A stretch of DNA of 64,000 bases from Scenedesmus sp. PABB004 (lineage: Eukaryota), in assembly GCA_014905635.1 (NCBI GenBank), contig JABVCE010000011.1, positions 310,001 to 374,000 on the forward strand, written 5' to 3'. A program made the translations under genes and the position numbers. This document shows, one piece after another, positions 16,690 through 26,938 of this stretch. Position 1 is the first letter of the stretch. Every line of letters begins with the position of its first letter. The notes below the pieces were generated by a model that was given only the letters and a program-made list of their open reading frames with translations, was not told the origin of the DNA and searched no databases.

Positions 16690-18000
16690 TCACTCGTGCA
16701 GCGGGCAGCCGCGCGGCGGCGCCGCCGCCGCCGGCGCCCCCGCGAGCCGGTGCGCGCCCGTGGCGGTCGCGTACGCGGACAGCGCGGGCATGAAATCGCT
16801 GCCACCGGTGCCCCGCGCGCCCTCGCGCGCGGCAAACTGCGCGATGTACTGTGCTGCGAAACCCCTGTGCTGCGCCCGGAACGCCGCGAGCTCGCCCACC
16901 GCGGCGTCGTAGGCCTCGGTCACGCTCGCCGCCGCGAGGCGCCGCACCGCGCCGCGCACGCTCGGCCCCGCCTCGAGCGCGTCCAGGAACGCGCGGTGGG
17001 CGGGCGGCATGTGCGCCCGCATCGCGGCGAGGTAGGTGGACAGCCTGCGGGCGCCGCCCCCGCGGCGGCGGCGCGTCGCGGCGTGTCGCGGCTGGGCGCA
17101 TGGCGAGCGGGCGGCGGGGCGCTGCCGCAGCCTGGCGCGGCGGTGGTGGCGGCGGCGGGCCGCCGCCGCGGCTGGGCCCGGCCAGGCGCGGCGGCGGCGG
17201 CGGCGGCGCACCAGCCGCGCTCGTGCTCGATGCCGAGCGCCGCGTCGAGCGCGGGCACGACGCTGCTCTGCGCGCCCGTCTCGCCGTAGAGCTGCTGCGG
17301 CGCGCCGCGCCAGAGCCCGCCGTAGACCAGTCCCCTTGGCAGCTTGGGATTGGCCCGCCAGCCCGACATCGGCAGCCGCACGCGCGTGTAATACACATGC
17401 GGATCGCACCTGCGGGTGGGCGGCAGGCGGGTGGGCGGCAAGCGGGCGAGCCGCGCGCCGCCGCCGCGCGCCGCCGGTCAGCGCCGCGCGCACCGCTCGC
17501 CCATGCACGACAGCAGCGCCTGCATCGCCTGCAGCGCCGCGACGAGCTCGCCGAGCCGCGCCTCCATCGCCGGCGCGTCGCGCCGCTCCGCGGCGGCCTG
17601 CAGCGGCCGCAGCGCCGCGAGCGCGGGGGCGGCCGCCGCCTCGATCGTCACGTGCACGGCGCGGAACCACTCCTCGTCCAGGCCGCCCAGGAAGTTCTAG
17701 CGACCGCGCGCGCGGGGCGGCGCAGCGGGCTTGCATGACAGGGCAGAGGGCTTGCAGCGCGGCGCTGGCGGCGCGCGGCGGCTCGCGGGCGAGCGCGCCG
17801 CGCCGCGCACGTGCTGGCAGGCGAGGTTGCCGAGCGCGACCGGCGCGGCGGCGTCGAGGCGGCGCCAGTTCATCAGGTTGTACGTCGCGTACACGAGCAC
17901 AGGCGGCATGCCCAGCGCGGCCGACACGGCCGCCCAGGGCTGCGCGAGCCGCGCCGGCAGCGCGTCGGGCGGGGCCGGGCCGTCGCACCAGACGTGCGCC

Positions 18001-18039
<39 letters not shown>

Positions 18040-18853
18040 TGGCGGGCGGGGCGCCGGGCTGGCGGGCGGTCTGCGGGGGGGGGGGGGGCAGCGAGCCAGG
18101 GCGCGGCCCGCGCGGCCCGTGCACCGCGCCGATGGCCTCCCGCGCCTCACGTGGCAGAGGAAGGAGAGCACCATGTACGCCCGCCACAGCTCCGCGTCGC
18201 ATGAACACCACGCCCCCGCCGCGCCGTCGGCCGCCACCGCCCGCCCGCCGGCGGCGTAGCACGCGCCCGCCGGCGGCAGCAGCTGGGGCGCCGCCAGCGC
18301 GCCGTCCACGCCGAGCGCGGGCGCGGCCGCGTTGCCGGGCGGCAGCGACGACAGCGCTGGCAGCTCGCGCAGGTCAAACGGCGGCAGCGCCTCGAGCGCG
18401 CGCCGCAGCGTGCCGGGGCCTGGCGGCGGCGGCGGCGGCGTGCTCGTGAGCGAGCGAACGGGCGGCCGCATCGACGACGACTGGGTGACCAGGGTCACCC
18501 GGCCGTGGCCACCGCCGGCCGGGCCCGTGCGGGTGCTGCTCACTGCCCAGCGCCAGCTTGGGGATGGCGTCCAGCGCCTCCTCGTACGCGGCCAGGCCGG
18601 GCGGCAGCCTGCGCCGGCGCGACGCGGTTGGCGCGGCCGGCGGCGGCCGCGGCGGCAGCGGCAGCGGCAGCGGCGGGCGCTGGCGCGCGCACCGCAGCAG
18701 CGGGTCGTGCTCCGGCAAGAACCCGCGCTCGGCGGTGACGCCGTCGAACAGAACAGCAGCGCGGCGGGCTGCGGCGCGCCCGCGGCAGGCTGCGGCGCGG
18801 CGCGGCGCCGCGGGCCGCTGCCGCTGCGGCCGCGCCGCCGCCGCGGCGCGCAT
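16690..18853 (-). CDS. IDO: Indoleamine 2,3-dioxygenase family heme enzyme with Arg/Ala-rich putative organellar presequence, 7 exons
   Basis: GFLPEHDPL, AYMVLSFLCH, LGMPPVLVYATYNLMNW, FLGGLDEEWFRAVHVTIE, RLPMSGW, GETGAQSSVVPALD, MRAHMPPAHRAFL, FRAQH (proximal His), GTGGSDFM; ATG 18853, TGA 16692-16690. Confidence 0.93.
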
Positions 18854-19251
18854 GGCGCCCCGGAGCGACCGCGGCAGCGCCTGAGGCGACCAGGCGCAGC
18901 ACGTGGCTCCGGGACGGGCGCGGCCAGCCCGGGCTGCGGCGCGGCGCGGGGGTTGGCGGCGAGCGCTCTGCTGCTGTTGCTCCGGCCCGCGGCGGCGGCC
19001 GCGCAGGTCGATGATCTCCAACTCCGCTCCCGTGCTACACCCGCCGCGGCGGCGCCGCAGAGGTTGCCACCCAGGCCCTGCGCGATCCTCCTGGCTCCCG
19101 CCAGCGGCGGCGGTGCAGCGCGTGCCAAAGCCCCACGTGCGCGGCGCAGCCAACGGCGCCACCGGCCGATCGCAGGGCCCACTTTCTACACGCACGCCGC
19201 CGCGCCACGCGCCTCGCGGGCTCCGCCGCTCGCGAGGGCTCGACCGCTGAG

Positions 19252-19368
19252 GGCATCGCCTCAACCATCGCGCCTTTCCGTCTCTCAAGTTCGAAAGGCG
19301 CCGGAGTGCACCCAACCACCCCAGACGCCTTCCGCACTTGAGCGACGCAGGGCGCGACGGCCGGTGCC
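19252..19368. ncRNA. Long imperfect hairpin A (pre-miRNA-like)
   Basis: Arm 19265-19308 (ccatcgcgcctttccgtctctcaagttcgaaaggcgccggagtg) pairs with 19317-19360; loop cacccaac; several + strand A-C mismatches become G-U pairs on the - strand. Confidence 0.55.
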
Positions 19369-19676
19369 GCCGCGCTGCTGCAGATGGCGCAAAGCGCGGT
19401 GCACGCGGCCGCAGAGCGCCGACCCGCCGCGCCCGCGCGGGTGGCGCCGCAACGTCCGAGGCGCGCCACGCCGCTGCCGGCTCGGCGCGCGGGCGGCTCG
19501 GCGGCGCGGCGCCGCCGCGCGGAGGAGCAGCGACCGGGAGGCGCGCGGCCCCGCGCCAGGGCCCCTGCGTCGTCGACGGCTGCTGCGGCGGCCCCGCGCG
19601 CGCGACGGGCGGGAAGTAGGAATGCGACAGAGGCGGGCAACCTCGGCAGCGCGGCGCGGCGCGGCACCCGCTGCGG

Positions 19677-19842
19677 CCGCCGCCTCGGGGCAGCGCTGCA
19701 CGCAGCGCGGCAGCGCTGCGCGGGCGTCCAGGGCATCCGGGCCGCCCTGCTTGACGAGCGCGGACGACCCGGTGGTCGCCTGAGGCAGTCAAGGAGGTCG
19801 GCCCGGATGCCCACGTGCAGCGCTGCCGCCGCGAGGCGGCGG
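19677..19842. ncRNA. Long hairpin B (pre-miRNA-like)
   Basis: 19731-19755 (gggcatccgggccgccctgcttgac) is the reverse complement of 19788-19812 with 2 mismatches; an outer ggcagcgctgc(a/g)cg arm pairs with 19814-19829; inner cgacc/ggtcg stem. Confidence 0.55.
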
Positions 19843-20038
19843 GCGCAGCGGGCGCGCGCACGCGGCCGCCCTGCCCAGCGCGCGCGGCGCGCGCGAGCAG
19901 TGCGCGCAGCGGCCAGCAGCGAAGGCCAGCGGAGGCGGCCAGCGGGTGCGGGGGGCGGCGTCGGAGGCCGGCGGCGCCGCGCAGCAGCCCCCGGCGGCGG
20001 GCCTGCCCACGCGCAGCAGCGGGCGCAGCACGGCGCGC

Positions 20039-20145
20039 GCCAACCTGGCCGCCGTGCAGCCCTTGACGCTCGCGTCGTATGTGCCCTGGTGTATCCTGGG
20101 CACCTTTGACGCGAGCTCCAAGGGCTGCACGGCGCCAAGGTCGGC
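20039..20145. ncRNA. Long hairpin C (pre-miRNA-like)
   Basis: cgccgtgcagcccttg (16 bp perfect) + gctcgcgtc (9 bp) + gtgccc (6 bp) pair with gggcac...gacgcgagc..caagggctgcacggcg; about 45-bp stem. Confidence 0.65.
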
Positions 20146-20713
20146 TGCCAGCCCGGCAGCGCCTCGTGTGTGCGCACGCGCGCGCGCGGCCCGGCGACGG
20201 CGCCACCCGGCAACCACAGCCGCCGCTGCGGTGCTCGACGCGTGCGTGCGGCCGAGCGCATCGGCGCCGCAGCGCGCGTGCTGGCGCGGCCGCGCGGCCT
20301 CGCCGCGCGGCACGCGTCGCTGGCCGTGAGAGCGTCGCCAGCAGCGGCGGCGGCGGGGCAGCCGAGGCAGCCGAGGCAGTACAGGCGGCGCTGCCCGGCG
20401 GCGGGCTCTGCCTCACGCTCGCAGCGGGTGGGTGGAGAGCGCTGCGCGCGGCATTGGCGCGCTCACGCGGCCTCACTCTCACCCAGCACCTTCGCAGGCG
20501 CAGGCGCTGCGTGCGCACGCAGACAGCAAGGCCCAGACCTCTACGGCCCTGCTTCTCACGCCGGGCGGGCGTTGCGTCTTGGAGGGGGGGGGGGGGGTGC
20601 GGCTGCAGCCCGCGGCGGCGGCGCGCCCTGCGGCGCCTGCGGCTGGGGCGCGACGATCACACCCCGGCTCGCTCGCGCAGGAGACGGTCGGTCAGGTCGA
20701 CCCTGCGGGAGGG

Positions 20714-20876
20714 GCAGCCCTGGACGACCATCTCCGGCGCCCTCGGGGAGCTCCTGCAGCAGGCGCGCGTGGCCCTCCAGGCCTACCTGGCAGTTGCTGC
20801 CAGGCGGACCTCGAGGACCACGCGCACCTGGTCGGGGGAGCTCGCCGAGGTCGCCGGAGCGCTGCCCGAGGGCTGC
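20714..20876. ncRNA. Long hairpin D (pre-miRNA-like), about 62-nt arms
   Basis: 20732-20793 versus the reverse complement of 20797-20859 gives about 50 Watson-Crick pairs, loop TTG; closing stem gcagccct/agggctgc. Confidence 0.65.
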
Positions 20877-20933
20877 GCCGCCAGCGGGGGAGCGGCCAGC
20901 GCGCCTCTAGCTCGCGGCTCACCCGCGACGCCC

Positions 20934-21000
20934 GACGAAGGCGGGGAAGACCCAGAGGTGGCAGACCTCCTTCTCCGACCGCTGTGTCCTCCTCGCCGTC
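20934..21000. ncRNA. Imperfect hairpin E
   Basis: ggcggggaagacccagaggtggcaga pairs ungapped with tctccgaccgctgtgtcctcctcgcc at 20 of 26 positions. Confidence 0.4.
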
Positions 21001-21037
21001 TGCAAGCACAGGAAGAAAAAGCGCGCGCGTGACGCCC

Positions 21038-21166
21038 AGGCGCACGCCGACGCACCGTCGTGAGCCTCGCGCTTTGGCAAAGTGCGCGTCTCCGTGACCG
21101 GGCCACGGCGACGCGCACTCTGCCGCGCGCGGGGCGCACGAGCGCGTGTCGGGCTCGTGCGGGCCT
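21038..21166. ncRNA. Long hairpin F (pre-miRNA-like)
   Basis: ggcaaagtgcgcgtctccgtg (21076-21096) pairs with cacggcgacgcgcactctgcc (21104-21124); outer tcgtgagcctcgcgc with gcgcggggcgcacga; further outer ccgac/gtcgg and gcacg/cgtgc. Confidence 0.6.
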
Positions 21167-21367
21167 GAGCTGCGTGCCGCGCGTCGTGTGCCCGTCCCGC
21201 CTCGCTGCCGGCGCCGTTTTGAGGCCGGCAGGGGGGGGGGTCGTGGGTGCGGCCGCGCGCGGCGAGGCCGAGGCCGAGGGCCGCGGCAGGGCGGGCGCGG
21301 CCGGCCGGCTGCGGCGCGGTGCGGGGTTGGCGGCGCGCGCTCAGCTGCCGCTGCGGCTCGAGGCGGG

Positions 21368-21462
21368 TCGCGGCGGTCGCGGCGGCTCGCGGCGGCTCGC
21401 GGCGGCTCGCGGCGGCCGGGCGGTCGCGGCGGCTCGCGGCGGGTCGCGGCGGCTCGCGGCGG
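21368..21462. repeat. Minisatellite of about 10-nt unit (TCGCGGCGGC), about 9 imperfect copies
   Basis: Directly visible tandem tcgcggcggc units between the hairpin cluster and the Ubl-E2 stop codon. Confidence 0.8.
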
Positions 21463-21568
21463 TTGGGTGCAACTCTCCTGTTTCATGAGCAGCAGCCTGC
21501 AACAACCTGCCCTTGCCTGACAACAACGCCAGCAACGCAGCTGCCAAAGCCTCAAAGCCCCGCCGCGG

Positions 21569-22950
21569 TCAGCGCGGCCCCATCGCGTGCGCGGCCGTGT
21601 GCGCCGCCACGGCCGCCTTCCACGCGCGGTCGGCTGTGAGCGCGGGCTTGCGCAGCAGCATGTGCAGCGCGGCGAGCACGCACGCCACCGAGCGCATCTC
21701 GGTGCCCACCACAAAGCAGATCACGCCGCTGCGCTCGTCGACGTAGGGGTTGAGGATCGGCGTCACAAACTTTGCACACGGCTGCCGGCCCGGGAAGGCG
21801 TGGCTAAACATCAGGCGCACGTGCCACCAGCCCCCCGCATAGGGCGTGCCCTCGGGCCCGGCGAGCTGCCGGCGCGCGCGGCGGGGGACGCAGGTCAGAG
21901 CGGCGGCCGCGTCGGAGGCCAGAGCTGCGGCCTGCCCAGCGATGCGCTGTGCTGCGCGCGACGTGCACGTGCACGCGCGCGCGCGCGCGCGCCTGGACGT
22001 GCCACACCAGCGGGTCATCGGCGTCCGGCGCGGCGCTGATGCCAGGCATGGGGTGGCGCATGATGTGCCTGAACTGCTTGGCCAGCTGGGCCTCCGTGCT
22101 GGTGCCGATGCGCGGCGTGTCCGCGCCCGGCGCGGTCACCGGCTCACCGACGATGCGCGCGCCGCCGCCGCCGGCGGCGCCGCCCCTCTGGCGCTCCACG
22201 GCCTGAGCGGCGGCAGCGGCAGCGGCGCGGTGCTGCTCAGCTCTTGCAGGAGACTGCCCGCGACGCCAGCGGCTGCAGCGCCGCCCTGCCCGCGCGCTGC
22301 CGGCACCGCGCGCTGCCGGCCCCGCAAGCGGCGCGCGCGCCCGACCCCGTGTCACACCTGGACGGCGTCCAGGCCGGGCTTGAGCGCCAGCGGCTTGCCG
22401 TCGTGCGCGGAGTCCAGCTCCTTGCCAGCATATGCCAGCCTGACCTCAGCGGCGCAGGAGCCCATCGACCGCGCCACCTCGCGCCGCAGGTCGCCGCCGG
22501 TCGTGACGCCCGGCGTGACCTCGACGCGCAGCAGCTGGCCGGCCGCGGTCACCACGGTGAGCTCGCGCCGCAGCTCGGGCGCCGGCGCCGGCGCGGCGGC
22601 GCGGCGCCGCATCGCGTGCAGCAGCGGCGCCGTGCCGGGGCGGGGCGCGAAGGCCTCGCCGTCGCGCGCCGGCGCGAGCTCGTCCCTGCGTGCGCGAGCC
22701 GCACGTCGTCGGGCCGTGCACCGGTGCGGGCCGCCACCTCGGCCCGGATGTCGCCCACGGTGGACCCCGGCTGCAGCGGCACGCGCAGCACGGCGCCGTC
22801 CTGCGTCACGATGTCCACGTCCGTTTGCTGCGCGCGCAGCCGCACGGCGGGGGCGTGCCCGCGGGGCGCGGGGCGCAGCAGCGCAGCGGGTGCGGCGGCG
22901 GACGCGCGGCGCGGCGCCGGCAGCGCGGGGCGGCGCGCGGCCGCGAGCAT
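21569..22950 (-). CDS. Fusion protein: transit-peptide-like leader, two ubiquitin-like domains (second ends RQRGG), UBC/E2 domain; 3 exons; 1-nt frameshift at 22684-22686
   Basis: Ubl1 VDIVTQDGAVLRVPLQPGSTVGDIRAEVAARTGARPDDVRLAHAG; Ubl2 LTVVTAAGQLLRVEVTPGVTTGGDLRREVARSMGSCAAEVRLAYAGKEL; intron 22357..22203; E2 GISAAPDADDPLVWHVQ|LAGPEGTPYAGGWWHVRLMFSHAFP...KFVTPILNPYVDERSGVIC; GC-AG intron 21992..21866; TGA 21571-21569. Confidence 0.8.
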
Positions 22951-23122
22951 CGCGCTGGCGTGTTGGGGCGCGTGAGGGGGCGGCTGGGGCGGTTCGAGAG
23001 CTTTGGCGCGCGGGGGGCGCCGCGGCGGCGTGGCACAGCTCGGGAGCGGGACCGAGGTTCAGCGCGCGCCGCCGCATGACACTCCCCCGCGGCACGCCGC
23101 ATCCTGCCCCAGTCCGCCCCTC

Positions 23123-26100
23123 TCAGTGCCGGGCGGGCTTGGCCATCGCGCCGCCGCTCACGCGCGGGCTGCCCGCGGCCGAGCCGGGTCGGTCCGCCAG
23201 GCGCGACGCCGGCCGCGCGGCCGCGCCGCCGGCGCCGCCGCCGCCCGCCGCGCCGAAGCTCGCACGCTGCCCCGGCGCGCGCGGCGGGCTCGCCGGCGGC
23301 GCGCCGCCGCCCTCCGCCGCCGCGCCGTCGCCGGCGGGGTTCGCCGCGGCTGCGGGCGCGCGCCGCGCCGCGCCGAGCTCCACCTGCGCCGCGCGCGCTG
23401 CAAAGTTGAGCGACGACAGCGTCTCGCTCGCCGACGCGGGCTCGGGCGAGCAGCAGCAGACCAGCAGGACCTTGCTGCTGCCCGACAGGCTGTCGGCGAG
23501 CACCTGCACAGGTGCGCGCGGGTGTGCGGGTGCGGGCATGAGGGAGGCCGCCGCCGCGCGGCGTCCGCGCCGGTGCCGCCGCCGCGCCACTTGCACAGCC
23601 CCCGGGCGCGCACGCGCGCCTGCGTGAGCTTGCTGTTGCGGAAGGGCACGTGCGCGCCGCGGCGCTGCAGCGCGGCGATAACGTCGCCGAGCGCGGAGAG
23701 GCTGCGGTTGATGGCCTGCGCCTCTCGCAGCTGCTGCCCGGCGACCTCGCTCCTGTCCACGCGCTCCGAGCCCGCCAGGTCCACCAGGTGCAGCAGCGAG
23801 CTGAACGGCGCGCCGCCCTCGCGCCGCCCGCAGACGCGCACGCTGAGCACGGCGTGCGAGCGGCTGCTGTTGGCGTTGAGCGCGGTCGCCGCGGTCGCCC
23901 GCGCGCGCGCGCCCTCCCGCAGCACCGCCTGCACCTCCCCGGCGTCGCGCACGGGCCGCCAGAGCAGGCCGGGCACGCTGCGGGGCGCGGGCGGGTGTGG
24001 CGGCCCCGCGCGCGGCGTCAGGCGGCCGAGGGGGTGCAGGGCGCGCGGGCGCAGGCGGGCGCGCCCGGCGCGACGCCGCACCGGTCCATGCCGGCCGGCA
24101 GCTCGCCCGCGGGGAGGCCCGACACGTCGAGCGTGTGCGCGGCCGCGGCGGCCGCGGCGGCGGCGGCCGCGCCGCCGCCGCCACCCGCGGCGCTGGCCGC
24201 GGCGGCCATGGCCAGCAGGTCCCGCACCGCCTCGTTGTAGATTTCCAGCATCGCCACCTGGGGTGGGGCGGCAGGAGCAGCGGCGGCGGCGGCGGCGGTG
24301 GAAGGTGGAGGGCCAGGCTCCGCGCGCGCCAGCCCCCGCGAGCCGCAGCACGGCCACGCGGCGGTGCAGGACGGCCGCGCGCGCAGCCGCGGCTGCGGGC
24401 CCACCGACCTGGAACGACCAGCCCCCGTTCGCCTCGTCCGCGGCGATCGCAAACAGCTCCTGCGACCGCGCGGCGGGCCGCAGCGCGCCGCGCGCGCGGC
24501 GGGCGTTCAGCACTCAGCAGAGGCCGCGCCTGCGCGCGCGCAGCCCCGCGTGCGTGCGCCCGTCGGTTGCGTGCCGGACCTGCAGCGCGCGCGCGTTGAC
24601 GCCGAGCGCGTCCGGTGGGCCGTCCATGGTGAAGGTCTTGCCGCTCCCCGTCTGGCCGTACGCGATGATGGCGGCGTTGAAGCCGTCGGCGCACGAGCGC
24701 ACGAGCGGCGACACCTCCTCGTACACCTGCGGCGGGCACAGCGGCCGGGCGGGGGCAGAGGCAGGGGCGGCCGTCGGGCGCGTCCGGCTGCGCACAGCGC
24801 GGCGGCTGCAGCTGCCGGCCGCCGCGCGCGTCGTCGGCCCGCGCGGCGCCGTGCAGGTCGCGCCTGCGCCTGGCCCGCCTCGGGCGGGAAGACGGCGTCA
24901 AATTCAAACTCCCGGCTCCGCGCCGTCGACGCGTCGCAGACCGCGACGAGGCCCTCGAGCGGGAAGCTCACGGCGCTCGCGGCGCAGCCGCCGGGCGGCG
25001 CGCGCCCGCGCGGCGACGCCGGCGCCGGCGCCGCGAGCGGCGGCCGCACGCGGCACATCACGCGGATGTTCCCCCGCAGCACCTGTGACGTGGCAGCGGT
25101 GGCACGAGCACCCTCAGGCCTCAGCGCACACGCGCAGCCTGGCCCGGCGCAGCGCCGTCGCGTTTCCCCGAGATGCAGGCCCCGCGGCCAGGGCGCCGCG
25201 CCTGCAGCTGCTCGTGCAGTCGCCGCCGCACGCCGCGCTCGCGCATGAACCGCTCCTCCCACTCCGCCGCGGCGGCCGCCGACGCGGCCGCCGCGGCGGT
25301 TGACGCGGCCGCCGCGGCGCGCAGGCCCTCGAGCGGCGCGAGCTGCGCCGCGAGCCGGTCGCGCTCCTCCGCCGCGTGCGCGGCCTCCGCGGCGCCGCGC
25401 TCGCGCTCGCCCGCCGCGGCCGCGAGCTCGGCGCGCAGCGCCGCCAGCTCGCCGCCGCGCTGCGCGAGCTGCTCCTGCAGCAGCGCCCGCTCCGCGGCGA
25501 CCTTGTCCAGCTCGCTGCTGCTCGCGTCGCCCCAGATGCGCGCCTGCGCGCGCGCCTCCTCCAGCGCCTGCGCGTCGCATGCAACATGTCGCCACGCCGC
25601 ACGCCGCGTCACAGCTCAGCCGCCGTCGCAGGCGGCGCCGCCACCGCCGCCGCACCTGGCGCACGGCCGCGCCCTCGCGCTGCAGGCCCTCCGCGGCGGC
25701 CGCCGCGTCGGCGAGCTGCCGCTCGAGCTCATACTTGACTCGCCAGGCCTCCAGGTTCTCACCCTTCAGCGCCTCCACCTCACCCCTCAGCGCCTCGGCC
25801 TCGCCCGCCGCCTGCGCCTGCGCCGCCTGGCGAGCGTGCGCGTGCGCGGGCGGCGGCGCGGCGCGGCGGCGGCGGCAACGCTGGTCGGCGACGCGCGGCC
25901 GCGAGCTGCCGGCGCCGGCGCGCAAGAGCAGCGGCGGCGCACTCGGGCTGCTCCATGCCCCCCCCCCCTACGCACGCAAGCGCACCAGGGCCGCCTGGAC
26001 GCGGGCCTCCGCGTCGTACAGCCGCTCGTTGGCCTCCGCGAGCGCCGCGCCCGCCGCCTCCTGCACGCGCGCGGCGCCGCCGTCGCCGTCGCCGCTGTCG

Positions 26101-26938
26101 CCGTCGGCAACATAGTACCTGCACCGCAGGCGGCCGGCGCGCGCGAGCTCGGACCGCGCAGCCGTGGAGGAGGGCGCGGCTGGCTGAGACGGTGTGGAGC
26201 GCTGCGCCGGCGCGCGCGCCTGTAATAGTGCTTCAGGCTGGCGCGCCACTTGGCCTGGCCGCCGCCGCTGCTGCCGCCGCCGCCGGCGCCTGCCAGCGGC
26301 GCTGCCAGCGCCGCGCCGCCGCTCCGCCGCGCTGCCGGCGAGCCCGCCTCCGGCCCGGCCGCCTCCGCCGGGCTGGCGCGCCCGCTGGTGGGGCTGCCGT
26401 CGCCGGCGGGTGCCGCTGCGCGAGCGCCGCCGCCGTCGGGCGCCGCCGCCGCCCTGGCCGCCAGCGACGCGCGCGCGAGCCAGCCCGGCACGCCGGCAGG
26501 CCACTCGCGCCCCGCCACATCGCCCCGCCCCCGCTCGGCATCGCCCAGGCTGCTCAGCAGCTCCCGGTTGGCCGGCGGCAGCGCCGCCGCGCCTGCCGCG
26601 GCGAGCGCGGGCGAGGCAGGCGTGGCGCGCGGCGGCGCCAGCGCGGTCAAGCGCCGTCGGCGACCGCCCGCACCGTGCAGCGCGGGGATGAGCTGCTGCT
26701 TGGCCCGGGCGTCCTGCACCTCGCGCTCGTAGAGCCGGCCCTCCAGGGACGCAATCCTGGCGAGCAGCCTGCAGCGCGCGGCCGCGCGCCGGTTGCCGCC
26801 AATTTTGTGGCGCGTGCGACAGCGAGGGCAGCAGCGCAGGCGGACGCGCGGCGACGGGCCGCACCTGTCCACCATCTCGCCGCTGCCGGCCGCGCCTGCG
26901 ACCGCCGCCGGGCGGGCGAACACGCCCGCCTCCGCCAT
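23123..26938 (-). CDS. Kinesin-14 family motor (coiled coil followed by C-terminal motor domain), multi-exon
   Basis: [23 protein letters not shown] (kinesin-14 neck), [71 protein letters not shown]. The start codon is less certain than the motor. Confidence 0.93.

Follow-up and report, generated by a model that had tools for sequence, protein, structure and literature searches.

Can a single gene of a green alga supply both a ubiquitin-like (Ubl) modifier and the E2 conjugating enzyme that passes it on? The question is raised by a gene on the minus strand (22950-21569) of a 64,000-nucleotide (nt) stretch of the Scenedesmus sp. PABB004 genome (GenBank assembly GCA_014905635.1, contig JABVCE010000011.1, positions 310,001 to 374,000), which is referred to in its full length as the window and in whose numbering all coordinates are given. 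As read from its sequence, the spliced gene encodes, in this order, a leader, two Ubl domains (Ubl1 and Ubl2), a linker and a UBC domain, the hallmark of E2 enzymes, and this layout was found where a preliminary description of the DNA had placed it. The answer favored here is that the product is a lineage-specific pre-protein, which is cut after the diglycine (GG) of Ubl2 into a di-Ubl and an E2, and that the di-Ubl is conjugated, most simply by means of the E2 that is made together with it; to this reading as a whole we assign a probability of roughly 0.4. New ubiquitin-like modifiers are rarely found, and SUMO, NEDD8, ISG15, FAT10 and UFM1 have each opened a field of their own. The interest of the locus lies at the level of the gene family, while the copy in the window may be non-functional.

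Layout and Coding Signal of the Gene

The locus is a real gene, whose product comprises a leader, a tandem of β-grasp domains, a linker predicted to be disordered and an E2 of the canonical UBC type (Table 1). Its start codon (22950-22948) is the first in-frame ATG past an upstream stop codon, and the frame that it opens, frame A, covers the leader and the first two thirds of Ubl1. Past a run of G residues within Ubl1 the reading continues in frame B, where DELAPARDGEAF...LLHAMRRRAA forms the end of Ubl1 and is followed by a short Ala/Pro spacer and then by Ubl2; the earlier claim that Ubl1 ends in LLHAMRRRAA, hence without a diglycine, is borne out by this translation. In the proposed frame, the GC content is 0.93-1.00 at third codon positions (GC3) and 0.51-0.76 at second codon positions (GC2) in every exon, while introns and flanks are flat at about 0.8. 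This signal switches frame exactly at the G run and is intact on both sides of it.

The physical link between the Ubl domains and the E2 is provided by the exon at 22202-21993 (70 codons), which encodes both the GG tail of Ubl2 and the first helix of the E2, with neither a stop codon nor a Met between them, the first Met being located inside the helix. An E2 with its N-terminus can therefore only be made as a fusion to the tail. The same continuity from the GG tail into the E2 is seen in one of two related loci of Tetradesmus obliquus (locus 1) and in a further relative, P0038. The last exon (21865-21572) reads LAGPEGTPYAGG...SGVIC... up to the stop codon at 21571-21569.

The leader of the window gene (22825-22950) and that of the relative from Hariotina reticulata (P0008, residues 1-29) are 29-42 residues long, basic and free of acidic residues, and are similar to algal organelle transit peptides, an Ala/Arg/Pro-rich make-up being at the same time the default composition at 79% GC. 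By its composition the window leader looks like a transit peptide, and it may have a role in targeting.

Table 1. Features of the Ubl-Ubl-UBC gene in window coordinates.
Feature	Position	Strand	Evidence and remarks
N-terminal leader, 42 codons	22825..22950	-	From ATG at 22950; basic, zero acidic residues; GC3 0.93
Ubl1, N-terminal part, frame A, ends ...VRLAHA	22687..22824	-	Aligns with ortholog Ubl1; Pfam ubiquitin E 0.13, profile positions 5-42; GC3 0.94, GC2 0.52
G run, 1-base change from frame A to frame B inside Ubl1	22684..22686	-	Frames A and B abut; GC3 signal switches frame
Ubl1, C-terminal part, frame B, ends ...HAMRRRAA, no GG	22595..22684	-	Aligns with Tetradesmus Ubl1 tail ...FTMRRAAAG
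Ubl2 core (strands 1-4, helix, start of strand 5), ends ...DAVQ at 22358	22358..22567	-	AlphaFold2; ubiquitin alignment
Intron 1, GT..AG, 155 nt, phase 0, within last Ubl2 strand	22203..22357	-	GT at 22357, AG at 22204-22203; same intron in deposited model; codon-position GC flat
Ubl2 tail AVERQRGG, GG codons 22184-22179	22179..22202	-	R-x-x-GG in 6/7 related loci
Low-complexity linker rich in Gly/Ala/Pro, 27 residues, with conserved VTAPGA	22098..22178	-	Equivalent Hariotina stretch at pLDDT <50
UBC N-terminal helix and first strand (...AQLAKQFRHIMRHP...LVWHVQ), in one exon with GG tail	21993..22097	-	58% identity (31/53) to Tetradesmus ortholog, whose UQ_con match begins here
Intron 2, implied by homology, GC..AG, 127 nt, phase 0	21866..21992	-	Donor cag|GCGCGC at 21992
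UBC core exon; NPY 21751-21743, catalytic Cys 21718-21716, stop 21571-21569	21572..21865	-	UQ_con E 1.5e-12, profile positions 35-122 of 140

Two Domains of the β-Grasp Fold

Both repeats are β-grasp domains according to structure models and structure comparison, in keeping with their initial identification as Ubl domains. In an AlphaFold2 model computed from a family alignment of nine rows, Ubl2 of the window (residues 40-109 of P0001) has a predicted local distance difference test score (pLDDT) of 82-91 and the element order β-β-α-β-β, the last strand being short because the exon stops there. In the corresponding model of the Hariotina protein (8-row alignment), Ubl2 is predicted at a pLDDT of >90 and Ubl1 at 58-82, both with the element order of a β-grasp, and the linker is disordered. 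The top Foldseek matches are linear di- and tetra-ubiquitin together with ISG15, at E values from 2e-10 to 1e-8; the aligned columns, about 200 in number, extend across both domains. On the level of sequence, Ubl2 of the window shares 27% identity with ubiquitin over 60 residues, in register, and the ubiquitin match of the Tetradesmus ortholog P0035 is above the Pfam cut-off (34 bits vs 25.4, E 2.6e-8, profile positions 1-70 of 72).

The first of the two domains ends on GG in none of three loci, and in the window and in Tetradesmus the position of the GG is taken by AA. As its GG is replaced, Ubl1 must stay joined to Ubl2. In P0035, residues 24-100 contain two copies of a VRLAYAGRELPPS stretch ahead of Ubl2; Tetradesmus locus 1 may thus encode three Ubl domains, or its gene model may be wrong at the 5' end.

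The GG Tail and the Linker Behind It

The E2-proximal Ubl domain ends on R-x-x-GG in six of seven distinct loci, namely on VERQRGG in the window, MMRMKGG in Tetradesmus locus 1, MQRMTGG in Hariotina, LQRFQGG in P0027, MHRMSGG in P0034 and MARMKGG in P0038, while Tetradesmus locus 2 (P0015/P0036, from two assemblies) has MQRVNITVT and no GG. The GG on which the preliminary description had built its proposal is hence a conserved feature of the relatives. The splice that it had drawn from Ubl2 across intron 22357..22203 to RQRGG, with the GG codons at 22184-22179, is exact: the distance from a VRL motif to the GG is exactly 37 residues in five of five ortholog tails, and in the window 29 residues before intron 1 and 8 behind it add up to the same 37, by which the junction is independently supported. 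An Arg five residues from the end of the tail is kept in all six GG tails. The equivalent Arg position in ubiquitin is held to matter for recognition by the E1 activating enzyme.

Directly after the GG, the six loci that have one read A, S, T, G, A and N, and never Pro. The linker that follows is conserved neither in length nor in sequence, as it consists of poly-Ser in Tetradesmus, of Gly and Ala in the window and of some 70 mixed residues in P0038, and conservation restarts only at (I/L)VTAPGA, about 10 residues ahead of the first helix of the E2. A GG on the E2-proximal domain only, at a fixed distance and with a free-running linker behind it, is the pattern expected of a processing site.

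The E2 Domain

The last exon of the window gene matches the Pfam family UQ_con (PF00179) with 47.8 bits against a cut-off of 27 (E 1.5e-12), so that the profile comparison agrees with the initial assignment of this exon to an E2. Among solved structures the exon is closest to UBE2H (E 1.3e-9), and the Cys that had been named as catalytic (SGVIC, codon 21718-21716) was placed exactly, as it aligns with the catalytic Cys of UBE2H. In the same alignment, NPY of the window stands opposite the HPN of UBE2H, and the HPN feature is thus absent from the window copy. Both E2s of Tetradesmus keep HPN and Cys; P0035 matches UQ_con with an E value of 7e-19, and P0015 has a complete UBC domain (E 3.4e-31, profile positions 2-139 of 140). 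For this complete paralog from Tetradesmus, UBE2A is the nearest match (E 1.5e-22). The ESM Atlas yielded plain UQ_con clusters only, apart from a single bacterial UQ_con cluster, 17% of whose members have YukD.

In other E2s, the Asn of HPN is held to be necessary for the transfer of a Ubl to lysines. If the frameshift in Ubl1 (see below) is an assembly error only, the window protein could probably still be charged on its Cys, while it is likely to be poor at handing the Ubl to lysines, because the HPN Asn is held to be needed for that very step.

Range of the Family

An exhaustive HMMER search with the Ubl piece as query against 1.84 billion representative proteins yielded 29 proteins at E≤1e-3, most of which are long metagenome proteins composed of many ubiquitin-family repeats. 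The best-scoring Ubl matches, the metagenome proteins P0006, P0007 and P0009, belong to this kind; they have 1378-2934 residues with many divergent ubiquitin-family repeats, and Pfam counts 16 repeats each in P0006 and P0007. The family-specific Ubl is found in five of the 29 proteins, namely P0008 (Hariotina reticulata), P0014 (T. obliquus locus 1), P0015 (T. obliquus locus 2) and the fragments P0027 and P0034; of these models, three run on into a UBC domain and the other two are fragments limited to the Ubl. For T. obliquus locus 1 there is a longer model, P0035, which shares a cluster with P0014, and P0038 was added as a sixth family member by a profile search. Searches of indexed protein collections added little beyond Tetradesmus and P0038, and no locus could be confirmed in two scans of metagenome contigs, for which the family alignment (A3) and P0027 served as queries. 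The layout thus recurs at two loci of T. obliquus, in H. reticulata and in three further fragments, and the family has so far been seen only in the green-algal family Scenedesmaceae, as far as the sequences searched extend.

Proposed Path From Pre-protein to Modifier

In the proposed mechanism, general ubiquitin-type proteases would probably cut the pre-protein after the GG, and the cut would free a di-Ubl similar to ISG15 or FAT10, with a reactive GG, as well as an E2 with an N-terminal extension. If such cleavage occurs, activation of the di-Ubl by an E1 and its conjugation to targets has slightly better than even odds; and if the di-Ubl is conjugated, the co-translated E2 would be its most likely carrier, an assumption that is rather more plausible than its opposite. 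The modifier and the E2 would then, being encoded in one reading frame, be produced simultaneously and in equal amounts. A bolder variant, in which the basic leader sends the pre-protein to the plastid or mitochondrion and Ubl conjugation takes place inside the organelle, is highly improbable. Tetradesmus obliquus, with two loci that have intact HPN and Cys, offers a compact and testable system.

A number of findings weigh against this reading. Among 126 stop-to-stop open reading frames (ORFs) of at least 110 residues between 12 and 32 kb, which were scanned with Pfam, no E1, deubiquitinase or other protease, or E3 was found within ±10 kb of the gene. The family is small, with three named species and three fragments, and all relatives are gene predictions, several of which are visibly mis-spliced. 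One of the seven loci, Tetradesmus locus 2, reads MQRVNITVT where the GG is expected; this may be an unspliced intron, since the V after MQR fits a GTN codon, and P0027, a close relative, has the GG. Both Ubl pieces of the window, each of which is a partial domain, match PF00240 in the correct register with 13.3 and 12.5 bits (E 0.071 and 0.13), which is below the Pfam cut-off of 25.4. The remaining points concern the window copy itself: a 1-base frameshift in Ubl1, inside the G run at 22686-22684; the change of HPN to NPY by two base substitutions; a donor of intron 2 that is GC, not GT, at the position used in the orthologs; and an E2 C-terminus that, after ...LLRKP, falls about 10 residues short of that in the complete Tetradesmus paralog, to which it is unalignable. 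A better C-terminal UBC exon was sought elsewhere in the window and none was found. The preliminary reading of the window copy stands as to its domains, while its account of these four departures was incomplete or silent.

State of the Window Copy

The four departures would also be explained if the gene were decaying or dead in Scenedesmus sp. PABB004, a reading that is compatible with the others and that we consider somewhat unlikely. As it stands in the assembly, frame A is open from the ATG to a stop codon just below 22552 and would yield a product of about 133 residues without Ubl2 or E2. The orthologs read straight through the site of the frameshift without room for an intron, and the 80-nt intron 22765..22686 of the deposited gene model, which hides the frameshift, was rejected as it would remove the core of Ubl1. 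The change to NPY is also present in independent DNA. Searches of two DNA metagenome runs returned mostly short GC-rich chance pieces and two credible ones (22230-22433 and 21579-21752), the latter of which, a 174-nt piece from an unrelated run, differs from the window at a single position. As both NPY and the Cys are confirmed by this piece, they are not assembly errors. The lost GT of the ancestral donor and the short, unalignable UBC C-terminus are further signs of decay, and the available text of PMC12571836 describes PABB004 as the member of its family whose genome is smallest and in which contractions of gene families are most numerous. Against decay, the GC signature of the codon positions persists in all exons, before the shift as well as after it; the parts of the gene show an even level of identity to the Tetradesmus ortholog (46%, 58% and 43%); the GG and the Cys are kept; and the sole difference in the independent DNA is synonymous. 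The shift, moreover, lies in a G homopolymer of an assembly with 78.5% GC, and in assemblies of this kind such errors are presumably common.

The GC donor of intron 2 is the one with which the protein has the length of the orthologs. The orthologs splice after W-x-(V/I)-K; three of their models read past this point, and all three continue with V, as expected of a GTN codon. The donor of intron 2, GCGCGCGC, differs from the modal donor of the locus, GTGCGCGC, at position +2 only; donors of the form GTGCG(C/G) are found in 12 of the 22 introns of the deposited model, three of them being GTGCGCGC. The V in the orthologs and a donor that departs from the mode only at +2 make a GC-AG intron of 127 nt plausible. 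Two alternative in-frame GT donors exist, at 22007, which is used by the deposited model and loses VWHVQ, and at 21974, which lies behind a (GC)9 run and gains six residues. This (GC)9 microsatellite (21975-21992) is located exactly at the start of intron 2, with two GTGCAC repeats behind it; 3' of the gene, at about 21370-21470, near-identical units of the ccgccgcgagccgccgcgacc type form a run.

Given that the codon-position signal is intact in every exon, the window copy is either the product of an assembly error combined with a real divergence of the E2, or it carries a very young lesion. The copy may be impaired.

Rival Readings of the Fusion

A product that is cleaved after the GG need not release a modifier. 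The Ubl could instead be a removable N-terminal module for folding, dosage or turnover, as in the ubiquitin-ribosomal protein fusions and FUBI-eS30, and the E2 would then use ordinary ubiquitin. The need for cleavage alone would explain the conservation of the GG equally well, the E2 is by its sequence a generic class I UBC protein (with UBE2A, UBE2N and UBE2H as nearest relatives) that bears no sign of a special Ubl partner, and no dedicated E1 is encoded nearby. A simple tag, however, requires neither two β-grasps nor a replacement of the GG of the first domain that keeps the pair joined, and all six GG tails keep the Arg five residues before the end, a position that in ubiquitin is held to matter for recognition by the E1. 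This explanation is judged unlikely.

The same low standing is given to the view that the protein is not cut at all, and that the Ubl domains remain attached and act in cis, either by docking the E2 to the proteasome, an E1 or an E3, or by regulating it via its backside face. Many eukaryotic enzymes bear uncleaved N-terminal Ubl domains, Ubl1 without its GG must in any case remain on Ubl2, and the conserved (I/L)VTAPGA just ahead of the E2 is possibly a functional tether. Integral Ubl domains generally lose their GG, yet R-x-x-GG is kept by Ubl2 in six of the seven loci at a fixed distance, and the linker behind it differs between the loci in both length and sequence, with disorder predicted for it.

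That the fusion is an artefact of gene modelling, with the Ubl and the E2 being two adjacent genes, is scarcely credible. Over-merged models do occur in this genome (the deposited one joins a kinesin, the Ubl-UBC gene and a dioxygenase via introns of 334, 738 and 1947 nt), but the GG tail and the first E2 helix share one uninterrupted exon here, the continuity recurs in Tetradesmus locus 1 and in P0038, and intron 1 and the spacing are typical for the locus.

The Deposited Gene Model and the Neighborhood

The window gene matches, at 100% identity, a section of the 1561-residue protein that is deposited as KIN14Q for Scenedesmus sp. PABB004 and whose model (16693-26938, minus strand) strings together a kinesin-14, the Ubl-Ubl-UBC part and an indoleamine 2,3-dioxygenase (IDO). 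While 18 of its 22 introns have 80-167 nt, the outliers include those between kinesin and Ubl (334 nt) and between UBC and IDO (738 and 1947 nt), and KIN14Q is clearly an over-merged chimera of three genes. A bridging exon of 15 codons is found in the model at 20872-20828. The Tetradesmus model P0035 likewise continues into IDO. A Ubl-UBC-IDO fusion, as implied by the deposited models of both genomes, was nevertheless rejected as unlikely, in view of the in-frame stop codon at 21571-21569 and of introns of 738 and 1947 nt vs the usual 80-167 nt.

As separate genes on one strand, the Ubl-UBC gene is followed by the IDO gene (16693-18880 in the window), and this order recurs in T. obliquus. It most likely represents conserved synteny, and a functional link is possible. 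In the roughly 2.7 kb from the UBC stop codon to the likely IDO start (18881-21568), there is no ORF of at least 110 residues with a Pfam match at E≤1e-5. Upstream of the gene and on its strand lies the kinesin-14 motor, and the wider neighborhood further comprises the exons of IDO at 16.7-18.1 kb, CobW, an NAD/FAD-binding fragment and an amino-acid transporter fragment. According to the part of the publication that is available (PMC12571836), the PABB004 assembly consists of 77 contigs with an N50 of 1.3 Mb, has a GC content of 78.5% and contains only 7,092 gene models. For annotation, the locus demonstrates over-merging of the PABB004 gene models, with Ubl-E2 genes concealed inside chimeras.

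Comparison With Known Systems

With the class I UBC E2s (UBE2H/Ubc8, UBE2A/Rad6 and UBE2N), the algal protein shares the UBC domain and an aligned catalytic Cys. In contrast to them, it cannot be assigned to a single subfamily, it carries N-terminal Ubl domains and the VTAPGA extension, and the window copy has NPY and a short C-terminus.

The ubiquitin-ribosomal protein fusions, polyubiquitin and FUBI-eS30 are classical precursors and are similar in having an N-terminal ubiquitin-family domain with a GG inside a longer chain. They differ in that the partner in the algal protein is an enzyme of the conjugation pathway, the Ubl is double, and the GG borders not directly on the partner but on a linker, which has 27 to about 90 residues. 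From ubiquitin precursors, monomers are released by cleavage, as stated in the accessible portion of PMC2408969. In the portion of a survey of ubiquitin fusion proteins in algae that was available (PMC6332867), the terms "conjugating," "UBC," and "Scenedesmus" are absent.

Closest in domain order of the modifier are ISG15 and FAT10, which likewise consist of two tandem β-grasps with a GG on the second only, and Foldseek matches to ISG15 chains reach E values of about 1e-9. There is, however, no specific kinship in sequence, as ubiquitin chains rank first (about 14 bits per domain) and ISG15 reaches an E value of 1.5e-4 over one domain, and ISG15 and FAT10 are modifiers of vertebrates, while the present family belongs to green algae. 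To our knowledge, ISG15 and FAT10 are not produced as E2 fusions.

The architecture itself has its nearest counterpart in the bacterial Type I Bub systems (formerly 6E/DUF6527 operons), in whose BubAB protein a Ubl precedes an E2 in one chain and a conserved Gly marks the point where they meet, a likeness that is one of analogy only. BubAB contains a Ubl of one to three β-grasps, and a cut right after the conserved Gly by the JAB peptidase of the operon frees a conjugatable Ubl, according to the sections available of the two reports (bioRxiv 10.1101/2024.11.21.623953, 10.1101/2024.11.21.623966). A polyUbl fused to an E2-like domain is also listed for some bacteria, in the accessible part of an earlier paper (Iyer 2006, PMC1779556). 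BubB has a Ser in place of the catalytic Cys and lacks the C-terminal UBC helices, and its operon supplies a DUF6527 protease as well as a fusion of JAB and E1. In the alga, by contrast, the E2 is a canonical UQ_con protein with Cys, and with HPN in the orthologs, the gene has introns, and no JAB-E1 or DUF6527 neighbors are found among the 126 ORFs at 12-32 kb. PADLOC 2023, from which Bub models are possibly absent, gave no match for the locus. Because the algal protein lacks the defining features of Bub, a Cys-less E2 and the operon partners, the likeness is convergent.

Full-text literature searches retrieved no natural Ubl-E2 fusion of a eukaryote and no paper that names the ortholog accessions, although a listing in the main survey of E2 architectures is possible (Burroughs 2008). 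The preliminary description had known of no such layout, and this stands for eukaryotes within the literature searched, in which a eukaryotic di-Ubl-GG-E2 pre-protein is undescribed, but not for bacteria, where BubAB is a tested Ubl-E2 pre-protein and the only described one that was found. That the Scenedesmaceae evolved a Ubl conjugation pathway of their own within one gene, with an ISG15-style di-Ubl and a dedicated E2 as a convergent eukaryotic counterpart of BubAB, is a doubtful proposition at present; if it is true, eukaryotes have independently arrived at the solution of the bacterial Bub operons.

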